Source of the DNA: Yuukianura sp. NJ FZ-2021
Taxonomy: Eukaryota
NCBI GenBank assembly: GCA_046563655.1
Contig: CM102290.1
Location: 15,066,001 to 15,130,000 of the forward strand
Length of the DNA stretch: 64,000 nucleotides
Reading direction: 5' to 3'
Shown here one piece after another: positions 21,501-24,500 of the stretch; positions within the stretch are counted from its first letter, which is position 1; every line of letters begins with the position of its first letter. The position numbers were made by a program, and so were the translations under genes. The notes beneath the pieces were generated by a model. The model had not been told where the DNA came from. It saw nothing but the letters and a program-made list of their open reading frames with translations, and searched no databases.

Positions 21501-24500
21501 CAGTTCATTCAACAAACAACAGTTGTGAGGGTACTTTCTCTTCCAATCACTAAGGTTTCACTTCCACGGAAAAGAAACGCAGTAGGGAAAAAGGAATCTT
21601 TTTAATTTGTGTTGAGAGAGAAAAGAGAAAAGGGAATGAAAAAAAGAAGAGAGAGAGAAAGTAAGTTTCTCTTTGTAAATGAGGAAATTAGGAAAGTTAT
21701 GAAAGAGAAGTAGATCGGTGGGTGTTTCTTTTTGAAAAATGTTATTTTTGGAGTGGGGCCTTAAGTAGTCACCTGTTCCTTAGCACCAGGATGACGACGA
21801 GTAGAAGTACGCCGAGTGACATGGCGACACTGGAGAGGAGGAGGACACAGACGTCGTTGCATGAGGCGACATCAGCCATGATGGCTGACAGCGGCACTTT
21901 CTCCGTGTCTTCCAGTGAGCTCCCGTCCAGCCCCCCACTCTCAGATTCCTGGAGGAGACTGGAGTTGCTGCTCCAGTGCACACAGATTCGATACATCATC
22001 TGCAAATTAGCACTTTTAGTCATTTCCCATATGAAGTTGGAGGAAAGACATTGTGATTTGATGCTAAATGTCAGAGTGAATGGAGCAGAGAGTAATTAGT
22101 ACTTACGGAAGGGGGGTTGGGCTGGAGAGGGACAAAGGAAGTGTCGATGAAGGAGGCCTTGACGCAGTACATGCCTGGCCAAGGGTCCACGTGACTAATG
22201 TTGGACGAAAGACCTGCAACACACACCAATCCAATCACTTTTCACTCTTTTACTTTCTCTTTTTTTACTTTCACTTTTCTCTTTTTCATTTGCTCTTTTT
22301 TTCCTTTACTGTTTTAGTTTTCTGTTTGTGCACTCTTTTTTTGAGAGATGCCTTACTGATGGTTGGTCGTAGGACGGTGTAGGGCGGTTTAGGTGGGAGT
22401 TTGACTTGAGTCTGGATGAAAGTGACGTTGAGGAGGCCCTTCCAGTCCCCCTGGACGTCAAGGTCAAAGGAGTTTGTGCCCACGGCGTCCCAGTCCCTGA
22501 ACAAAAGAGACTTGTTCTGCGAGTCCTCGTGGATGAGACGTTGATGCTAAAAAGAGAAAGGAAGTGTGTGAAATGGTGTCGAGTCCCCCCATAGTCGTCC
22601 TTACCGCCTCATACTTGTTGTGCTTGTTCTTGAGGGAGATGGTGAGGTTGACGTTGGTGGCTCCGTCCTGTGTCGTGGGTGGATTGTCGTCCTCGTCCAA
22701 CACAACTAATTTCCCTGGCAACTCCAGTCGCTCCACTGCCCCACCCACTTGAACCGTGCAACTGACACGGAAAGAGTACTCCTCACGCCACTCTCGGTCC
22801 AAACCCCCTTTGATCACAAGCGCCTTGTCACTCTCTCCAGCACCAACACCAAGGAACAAAACTTCTAAACAACACAACCAACACTTGTACAAATTACACA
22901 AAACATACAAATTATACAATTTATACAAATTATAATAAACATAGAAATTTTACAATTTATACAAATTAGAAAAAACAGAAATTATACAATTTACACGAAT
23001 TAAAAAAAAAACAGAAATCATTATTATGCTATAATCATACGCCGGACAAGAAAGATCAAACGTACTAAGAACTTTAAAATATTTTTTAAATTGTTAACAA
23101 AGCGTAAAATCTTTTTGGCAGATGGAATGATGGAAAATGTAAAAAAAAAAAAATAATAATTTTGTACTTTTTCGAAACATTTATGTCAAAAAGTGTGTTT
23201 TTTTTAAGCAAAATCATAGTCAATTTTATTTAAATTGTTAAAAAAAAACATCATTATTCTTTTCCAGAGTTTGAATTTTGCAGTTTCATCTAAATAAAAA
23301 CGTTGTAAAGTACAGTGGCTCCCAGTGCCTGCGGATTTTTTCGTTATATTTTAATTTAAATAGAATTGTAATTGCATTTCAGTTGCAATCACTATATATT
23401 TCCATTTTAAACTTCTATTTTTTGTTTCTGACCAACAAAAAATGTAATTAAATATCATGCAAATTTTGAGTTTTTAACTATCTTTTTTCTTAGAACTTAA
23501 CTTGGAAGTTTTGAAAGGGATTATTAAGATTTAAATTTTTAACGATTCTTTTTAGATGATTCTTTTCCGGTGTATGATTGATTATAACGATATAATTATG
23601 TTAAACTAATAGTAATACTTATGGAATTGTCAACTCATTTTGTCACTTGCCTTCTTGAGGTGGGGCCATGGACAGGTCATAGGTCAGCACTGCTGGGGAA
23701 CACTCTGGTGGGGCCGGGTAGCCCAACTCACGACCCACCACCTCCCCACTGTTCTCCAAAACCTGGAACTCGTACTCCACTTCCCCCTGCCAGCATCTCA
23801 TGACCTAAAAGCACAAAAGTGATTGGAGGGGGGCACTTGAGAATAAAAAAGGGGGGCCTTACGTTTGAGCAGGGGTCCTTTGAGTGGGACTGGCTTTGGT
23901 TGAGGTGGGCCACTTGACCTTGCCTTTTCACCGTGCATTCTCCACCTAAATGGGCCACAACATGCACAAAGTTAATTTAGGATCGATATGGGTGGGTTTG
24001 TGTGTAATTGGGCTCATTGAAACAGAGGTGGGGTGGAACACAACCTCATTTCCCTACCCTCCCCCCACCCGCCCCCGCCCATCGATTAACACACTCAAAT
24101 GTCACCAACACCCTCCACTTCTCCTCCACCGCATTTCAAAATGTGTCATTTGGGAACAGGGAGCGACAGGAGTCCAGCCTCTGTCATTCTGGAGAAATGG
24201 GGCTGGAAGGGGCCTGGAATGGTGCTGGAGAGGGCCTGGAAGGGGCTGGAAGGCTTAGTTTCCCTGCGGAGGCGGAAGTATGAGAGCACAAATTGAAATT
24301 CCAAATCCCTATTGTCCTTGGGACTCTCAACTTTGTCCCTGGAGAGAAAGGGAGAAAGTTTGGATAAAAAGTTGGTTTTGACTAATTAGTAATTAGGAGT
24401 TGGAGAGAAATGTCGTTGGCATGGGAACACTCTCTCACCTCCCATTCAATCAAATCACATGTTGACGTCACTGAGAGAACACTGTAAAGGCGTCACTCGA

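Follow-up and report, generated by a model that had tools for sequence, protein, structure and literature searches.

RET has been described in a review as having an ectodomain of four cadherin-like domains (CLD1-4) and a cysteine-rich domain (CRD), all of them required for folding and ligand recognition (PMC7619074). In vertebrate RET, by the account in PMC8266384, the dominant co-receptor site (site 1) lies on CLD1-3 around the calcium hinge and only site 2 lies on the CRD, which contacts the ligand dimer and fixes the spacing above the membrane helices. Insects have been reported to be without GDNF ligands, and in the same report Drosophila Gfrl failed to activate Ret (PMC3527400). Cad96Ca/Stitcher has been called a Ret paralog (PMC3720245). 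Among the papers listed in our literature search, none dealt with a Ret from springtails or with a Ret naturally lacking the CRD. Here we analyzed a receptor gene, first noticed in an original prediction, on the minus strand of a 64-kilobase (64-kb) stretch of the Yuukianura sp. NJ FZ-2021 assembly (contig CM102290.1, positions 15,066,001 to 15,130,000); the whole stretch is called the window, and its numbering is used throughout. The locus is probably a Ret-lineage receptor tyrosine kinase gene of a springtail-like hexapod with an internal loss in the ectodomain, and it may show how a Ret receptor works without the usual ligand-docking module.

The ectodomain interval and the cysteine-rich domain

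Exons e1-e4 (Table 1), each with AG before and GT after it, join into one open frame, and the introns between them have 58, 143 and 107 nucleotides. From the calcium motif DEDDNPP to the start of the membrane helix, this frame has 181 residues with 4 cysteines. The corresponding stretch has 375-485 residues and 15-23 cysteines in the 16 other Rets in which the motif pattern and the helix finder both worked (12 further Rets had no motif match, and two odd rows lie outside the range: P0003, with 307 residues, and P0009, with a miscalled helix). After DEDDNPP the frame runs for about 115 residues, followed by a stalk rich in Ser and acidic residues, the cysteine pair CNDVC and a 22-residue hydrophobic helix.

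The Pfam families RET_CRD (PF22540), RET_CLD1, RET_CLD3 and RET_CLD4 had no match in the ectodomain exons at E values up to 1. Our own hidden Markov model (HMM) of the CRD and outer juxtamembrane segment, made from 31 Rets, had no match in the joined protein, and its best hit in the six frames of the window (E 0.92) was in an unrelated place. A chelicerate Ret HMM gave no CRD or CLD4 signal in any frame of the window. The RET_CRD expected of the RET family was thus not found in the window protein by the Pfam scan, by our own HMM or in the number of cysteines, only 4. All 33 Ret-clade proteins whose kinase is preceded by 220 residues or more matched RET_CRD, 32 of them above the Pfam gathering score and P0243 at 21 bits. 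The scanned set comprised 38 single-stretch library matches of at least 350 residues, 6 proteins from the exon K5 search and 5 from the exon K2 word-index search; P0239, P0247 and P0255, fused to unrelated N-terminal domains, and the non-Ret P0013 were left out of the count, and 12 proteins with fewer than 180 residues before the kinase are uninformative on the CRD. The CRD is the one ectodomain element present in every other Ret examined, including those of vertebrates, molluscs, ticks and insects.

For CLD4, our own CLD3-CLD4 HMM (233 positions) aligned over positions 21-117 only, and about 35 residues are left before CNDVC. Pfam RET_CLD4 is a weak detector, found in 3 of the 44 comparison proteins, so the argument from length is the stronger one. 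In the gene as modelled, CLD4 and the globular CRD are absent. Judged by its predicted protein, the gene is of Ret lineage, yet it falls outside the domain definition of RET, with the CRD and CLD4 missing and CLD1 not found. The original prediction had proposed four phase-compatible exons with these three introns, about 175 residues and 4 cysteines between the calcium motif and the helix, and a receptor missing CLD4 and nearly the whole cysteine-rich domain; the exon borders and the single frame agree with it, the length needed only a small correction, and neither domain is detectable by Pfam, by our own HMMs or from the length of the interval. With introns this short in the interval, and with the chelicerate Ret HMM and the CRD HMM matchless in every frame of the window, a long isoform that takes CLD4 and CRD exons from elsewhere in or near the gene is extremely improbable and close to refuted.

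In the three fused library proteins the partner of the Ret kinase is the N-terminal arm of CUX1, a propeller of the LisH-WD40 type or a kinesin motor; they look like fusion proteins, not like receptors occurring in nature, and the final tree was made without them. Several Ret-named models were seen in the snails Biomphalaria and Bulinus (P0019, P0020, P0022); in some of them the part ahead of the kinase is shorter than 150 residues and has no CRD. One snail Ret-named model has a partial CRD match (profile positions 6-72), and the snail models are perhaps partial or truncated copies.

We compared the window with contigs of four DNA runs from two studies over 18000-27000; three runs are from one sample and the fourth is labelled as a different organism. 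The contigs are collinear across 21645-22869 in X2 record 12 (spanning 21713-22628, gapless), X3 record 19 (spanning 19925-26610, with about 36 extra letters within the A-rich intron at 22298-22300) and X4 records 25 and 24 (spanning 21645-22283 and 22260-22869). Among the differences listed, those of length over 21645-22869 are in introns only, and none of the interval's exons holds a joint or an insertion; another 210 letter differences and 35 indels lie outside the differences listed. Because the contigs of four runs and two studies are collinear here, an assembly deletion of the two domains, which the original prediction had left to be checked, is unlikely. Four of the five isolated exonic letter differences among those listed are synonymous, a small partial list that proves little.

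These data also bear on the explanation that the locus is an artefact or a dying gene, that is, an assembly or haplotype deletion, a misjoined model or an unexpressed pseudogene copy. The frame is open over 13 exons with all catalytic motifs intact, the same arrangement over 21645-22869 was detected in independent contigs, including those labelled as another organism, and the mostly synonymous exonic differences point in the same direction. Two introns need GC donors, which would fit a defective model, but both donors have the usual AG/GCAAGT form. An artefact would also agree with the N-terminal part, which is not modelled with confidence, and with two disagreements between reads and window upstream of the short interval, one base at 24194/5 in all four runs and 5 bases at 25273 in three of them. 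Taken together, we consider an artefact or a dying gene very unlikely.

Eight linked differences at 22704-22718 were detected in X1-X3 and not in X4; they change PGKLV to GGKLT just before DEDDNPP and indicate a diverged haplotype.

The domain order of the window protein is a CLD2-like domain, the calcium hinge DEDDNPP, a CLD3-like domain, a stalk of about 35 residues, CNDVC, a single membrane helix, the kinase and NPTY. The best solved-structure match of exon e1 is the human RET ectodomain, residues 198-262 (E 1.3e-6, 31.5 bits). The same exon is 45% identical to scorpion Ret P0011 (210-267) and matches our own Ret N-terminal HMM with E 2e-10; Pfam Cadherin is weak on it (E 0.17), and the word-index search with it among longer proteins gave 127 candidates, none with E <=0.01. 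By BLAST against a database of about 300 proteins, the ectodomain is collinear with CLD2-CLD3 of several Rets, those of the stick insect P0240 (residues 32-257, E 2.7e-7), the crab P0021 and the vertebrate-type P0207. An HMM that we made from the 240 residues preceding the CRD in other Rets aligned only in its first half, with positions 21-117 on residues 174-275 of the window protein at 13.2 bits, FRDWDAV included. DEDDNPP is identical in the ant P0015 and stick-insect P0240 Rets. A CLD2-CLD3 pair with a calcium hinge is indicated by DEDDNPP, FRDWDAV and the collinear alignments, with weak scores for CLD3. No Ig family was matched by Pfam on the ectodomain exons, and an FGFR-type ectodomain was not found there.

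CNDVC stands directly before the membrane helix, at the place of the C-x3-C of other Rets, which is at most 5 residues away from the helix in 25 of the 26 compared (the remaining one, a mite, has C-x4-C). The proposed match of CNDVC to the human pair C630/C634, in the numbering used in PMC7619074, is borne out by this position.

Placement of the kinase

The kinase, predicted to be intact, has all its catalytic motifs and APE, two tyrosines in the activation loop and NPTY in its short tail. Among solved chains, exon K2 matched the RET kinase best (52.8 bits versus 38.3 for FGFR3). When 315 residues of the kinase are compared, 44-54% are identical in Rets, 43-45% in Ig-type FGFRs and at most 41% in VEGFR1. 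The word-index search with exon K2 returned tick and scorpion Ret-like proteins, and that with exon K5 returned Ret of ant, crab and snail, followed by FGFR and VEGFR1. A metagenome scan with K2 gave 62 loci, the best with 51% identity over a part, all of them unrelated kinases, and the ESM Atlas search with K2, in which the Ret and Ig families were skipped, gave generic kinase fragments only.

A maximum-likelihood tree of 53 rows was made from 80 rows after 17 long-branch multi-kinase or unplaced rows and 10 near-duplicates were dropped. Its Ret branches match animal phylogeny, with one group of deuterostomes and molluscs, one of chelicerates (97/95) and one of pancrustaceans (99/96). The Ret clade (93/96) includes the window, on a long branch (0.7) and apart from the FGFR-type rows. 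It pairs at 99/96 with the Orchesella cincta 'Proto-oncogene tyrosine-protein kinase receptor Ret' (P0141, ODM86552.1; partial, 408 aa), and this pair is sister to 11 insect Rets (96/85) within the pancrustacean Rets (99/96). An ungapped 3-residue insert after VAVKMLK was detected in the window, P0136, P0138, P0141 and P0196 only, the three besides P0141 being fragments. The two relatives share this insert, and they differ in that their kinases are only 51% identical and the P0141 model begins just inside the membrane. In the comparison with Rets and FGFR-type receptors, kinase similarity and the tree agree with the Ret lineage first proposed for the gene.

The gene might instead be a Ret-like paralog, older or specific to a lineage, rather than a Ret ortholog. 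It could correspond in springtails to Cad96Ca/Stitcher or be a duplicate restricted to springtails, and the canonical Ret would then be elsewhere in the genome. By description, Cad96Ca/Stitcher has a short cadherin-type ectodomain, one helix and a Ret-like kinase; the window protein has a similar layout and, provided that exon a directly follows the signal exon, a similar size of about 766 residues. Stitcher is presented as Ret-like with a cadherin domain in PMC3720245, and the H. armigera CAD96CA constructs in PMC11908783 end at residue 615. However, the window has two cadherin-like units that align to Ret CLD2-CLD3, versus the single cadherin domain described for Cad96Ca/Stitcher, and it keeps the C-x3-C beside the helix. 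It is also closer to the vertebrate-type Ret P0207, with 50% identity in the kinase versus the 42% given for Stitcher and mammalian Ret in PMC3720245.

The library searches add to this comparison. Exon K2 had 759 matches in the full library, and the best 150 of them were considered. Every unfused protein among these with at least 350 residues, 220 or more of them ahead of the kinase, has a RET_CRD match. A receptor of about 600-800 residues with cadherin domains only was not among the 150, where insect Cad96Ca would be expected if it were closer. No Cad96Ca name appeared among the 13 named K2 or the 120 named K5 word-index matches. The tree puts the window exactly at the springtail Ret position; for a paralog speak the AU (approximately unbiased) test, in which a position outside the other Rets was not rejected (p 0.141), the low kinase identity to O. 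cincta Ret, and P0196, a hint of multiple Ret-like copies among springtails and their kin. We consider the paralog explanation unlikely.

Several points weigh against a Ret-lineage receptor with an internal ectodomain loss. The tree was made without Cad96Ca/Stitcher, the known short Ret-like clade, and the window and P0141 are both long branches. In the AU test, the tree with the other 40 Rets as a clade without these two was not rejected at a log-likelihood difference of 7.75. Exon K5 alone matched FGFRs best among solved chains. On exon e1, protocadherin-19 scored 30.9 bits, near the value for RET, and because of this near equality the exon alone indicates the end of a cadherin-type domain that is not Ret-specific. 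The CLD3 assignment, at 13.2 bits, is weak, and the splicing of the gene is predicted from the window. P0141 is the only springtail relative with a long kinase stretch, and it is a partial model without an ectodomain. A second, canonical Ret in the same animal is possible, the search for it covering the 64-kb window.

Comparison with described receptors and possible activation

The Ret-lineage gene in the window is like RET and Drosophila Ret in its kinase, nearest to Ret by score and tree, in the cadherin-like pair with DEDDNPP, in the C-x3-C beside the helix at the position of human C630/C634 (numbering as in PMC7619074), and in the activation-loop tyrosines and C-terminal NPxY-type motif. 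It is unlike them in the missing CLD4 and globular CRD, the CLD1 not found, the long kinase branch and the short, cysteine-poor stretch between calcium motif and helix.

The receptor is presumably made and active. The CRD contact, which as site 2 docks the ligand dimer and spaces the two membrane helices in vertebrate RET, would be unusable here, and because of this any activation would have to go through what remains. A partner could bind at the CLD2-3 calcium hinge, in the site 1 region; the receptor could associate laterally with another membrane protein; or it could self-associate via the C-x3-C and helix region. The original prediction had held that the canonical ligand and co-receptor complex cannot form. 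Its further suggestions of another ligand, adhesion or constitutive dimerization are conjectural. The loss of the complex would hold for site 2, with the CRD missing, and not for the complex as a whole: since site 1 is placed on CLD1-3 and only site 2 on the CRD in PMC8266384, one of the two contact sites could survive. The canonical complex may never have applied to this lineage, given the report of insects without GDNF ligands (PMC3527400).

The window protein resembles the MEN2A-type RET mutants (from multiple endocrine neoplasia type 2A), in which an unpaired juxtamembrane cysteine gives ligand-independent dimers, in that it keeps only the last outer-juxtamembrane cysteine pair and has an odd number of ectodomain cysteines, 9. 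It differs from them as a natural gene and no point mutant, and its dimerization is a conjecture. A bolder proposal is that the gene is the springtails' only Ret, a minimal CLD2-CLD3 hinge on a flexible stalk, without CLD1, CLD4 and the CRD and with one ectodomain cysteine left unpaired. It would signal without ligand as a dimer held together by disulfide linkage, in natural analogy to the MEN2A mutants, or via a hinge-only partner, and would represent a living intermediate from full-length Ret to Cad96Ca/Stitcher-type receptors. We regard this combination as distinctly unlikely.

If the locus is an intact Ret-lineage gene without the CRD, then selection can maintain the kinase together with the membrane helix and calcium hinge when the CRD is gone. 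The gene would be a natural minimal construct for asking about the role of the hinge region alone, and would bear on the use of the CRD in arthropod Rets without GDNF and on the origin of Cad96Ca/Stitcher. It would be a gene of ordinary interest if it is the springtail Cad96Ca.

Gene model, N-terminus and neighbouring loci

The 13 exons of the model, that is, e1-e4 with two upstream and seven downstream exons, form a single open frame of 745 residues with a complete tyrosine kinase at its end (Table 1). The two upstream exons supply the first half of the cadherin-like domain; the seven downstream exons supply the juxtamembrane segment and the complete kinase, and a TAG closes the frame. The receptor locus is a well-supported gene model rather than a demonstrated receptor. 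The 9 ectodomain cysteines are counted on the protein as modelled, and because the N-terminus is uncertain this count may change and is a hint only. GC donors were modelled in 2 of the 12 introns (minus strand, 23650 and 20175), and at 23650 no GT donor keeps the phase. The intron between K5 and K6 is mostly filled, at 18823-19076, by a 37-nucleotide unit repeated 6.9 times with 94% matches.

Table 1. Exons modelled for the Ret-like receptor gene of the window
Feature	Coordinates	Strand	Content and basis
Candidate first coding exon	25707..25770	-	ATG and signal-peptide-like stretch; weak donor GTTCGA; leaves 1 nucleotide, fits exon a; predicted
Exon a	23863..23945	-	Start of CLD2-like domain (GECTVKRQ...DPCSN); AG/GT borders, frame
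Exon b	23651..23804	-	Middle of CLD2-like domain; GC donor AAG/GCAAGT, the sole phase-keeping donor; weak local match to crab Ret P0021 176-199
Exon e1	22605..22864	-	End of CLD2 (LDREWREEY...VSCTV), calcium motif DEDDNPP 22697-22677, start of CLD3
Exon e2	22357..22546	-	CLD3-like; FRDWDAV 22501-22481 at the place of the CLD3 acidic calcium ligands
Exon e3	22107..22213	-	CLD3-like, continued; borders, frame, own HMM
Exon e4	21773..21999	-	Last CLD3 strand RICVHW, Ser/acidic stalk of about 35 residues, CNDVC 21861-21847, membrane helix 21846-21781
Intracellular juxtamembrane exon	21292..21442	-	Borders, frame
Kinase exon K1	21109..21223	-	Glycine loop GTGQFG
Kinase exon K2	20176..20377	-	VAVK lysine, alpha-C helix; GC donor modelled, GT donor 3 nucleotides downstream also in frame
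Kinase exon K3	19548..19734	-	Kinase insert
Kinase exon K4	19354..19483	-	Activation-loop tyrosines DIYVDEAY
Kinase exon K5	19082..19283	-	APE, C-lobe
Kinase exon K6 and short tail	18572..18803	-	NPTY 18670-18659; stop TAG 18574-18572

Upstream of exon a, the candidate first coding exon is the sole exon on the minus strand of 23946-28600 with an ATG, a hydrophobic start and a donor. By the splice filter, its direct joining onto exon a is the only phase-compatible chain, in the window and in a read-corrected version of it. No CLD1-like sequence was detected upstream by the chelicerate full-length HMM or the mixed N-terminal HMM (three profiles overall), and BLAST of all upstream frames gave exon e1 only. 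CLD1 is described as the most divergent Ret domain (PMC7619074), and for this reason its absence is unproven; CLD1 may be either absent or diverged beyond detection. The open frame 24385-24125 was considered as a CLD1 exon and rejected, since neither the window nor its read-corrected version offers it a donor of suitable phase; it overlaps an 11/22-nucleotide tandem repeat.

The base at 24194/5 is lacking in all four runs, upstream of exon a and beside the 11/22-nucleotide tandem repeat (24194-24253). In three runs five extra bases follow 25273, and the length of the window differs from that of the reads upstream of exon a. At 24923-25223 and 26729-27000, which belong to the long first intron and the region upstream, summed contig depth exceeds that of adjacent bins by a factor of hundreds to thousands, indicating high-copy repeats that are probably transposon pieces.

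Three neighbouring loci were noted by eye. The open frames at 28688-29850 on the plus strand, head to head with the receptor gene, resemble a TSG101/UEV-type gene, and the long open frames at 33372-36154 on the minus strand resemble exons from a voltage-gated potassium channel of the Shaker type. At 15600-18400 on the minus strand, immediately downstream of the receptor gene, several open frames, each with four hydrophobic stretches, resemble claudin/PMP22-type tetraspan membrane proteins in a small tandem array.

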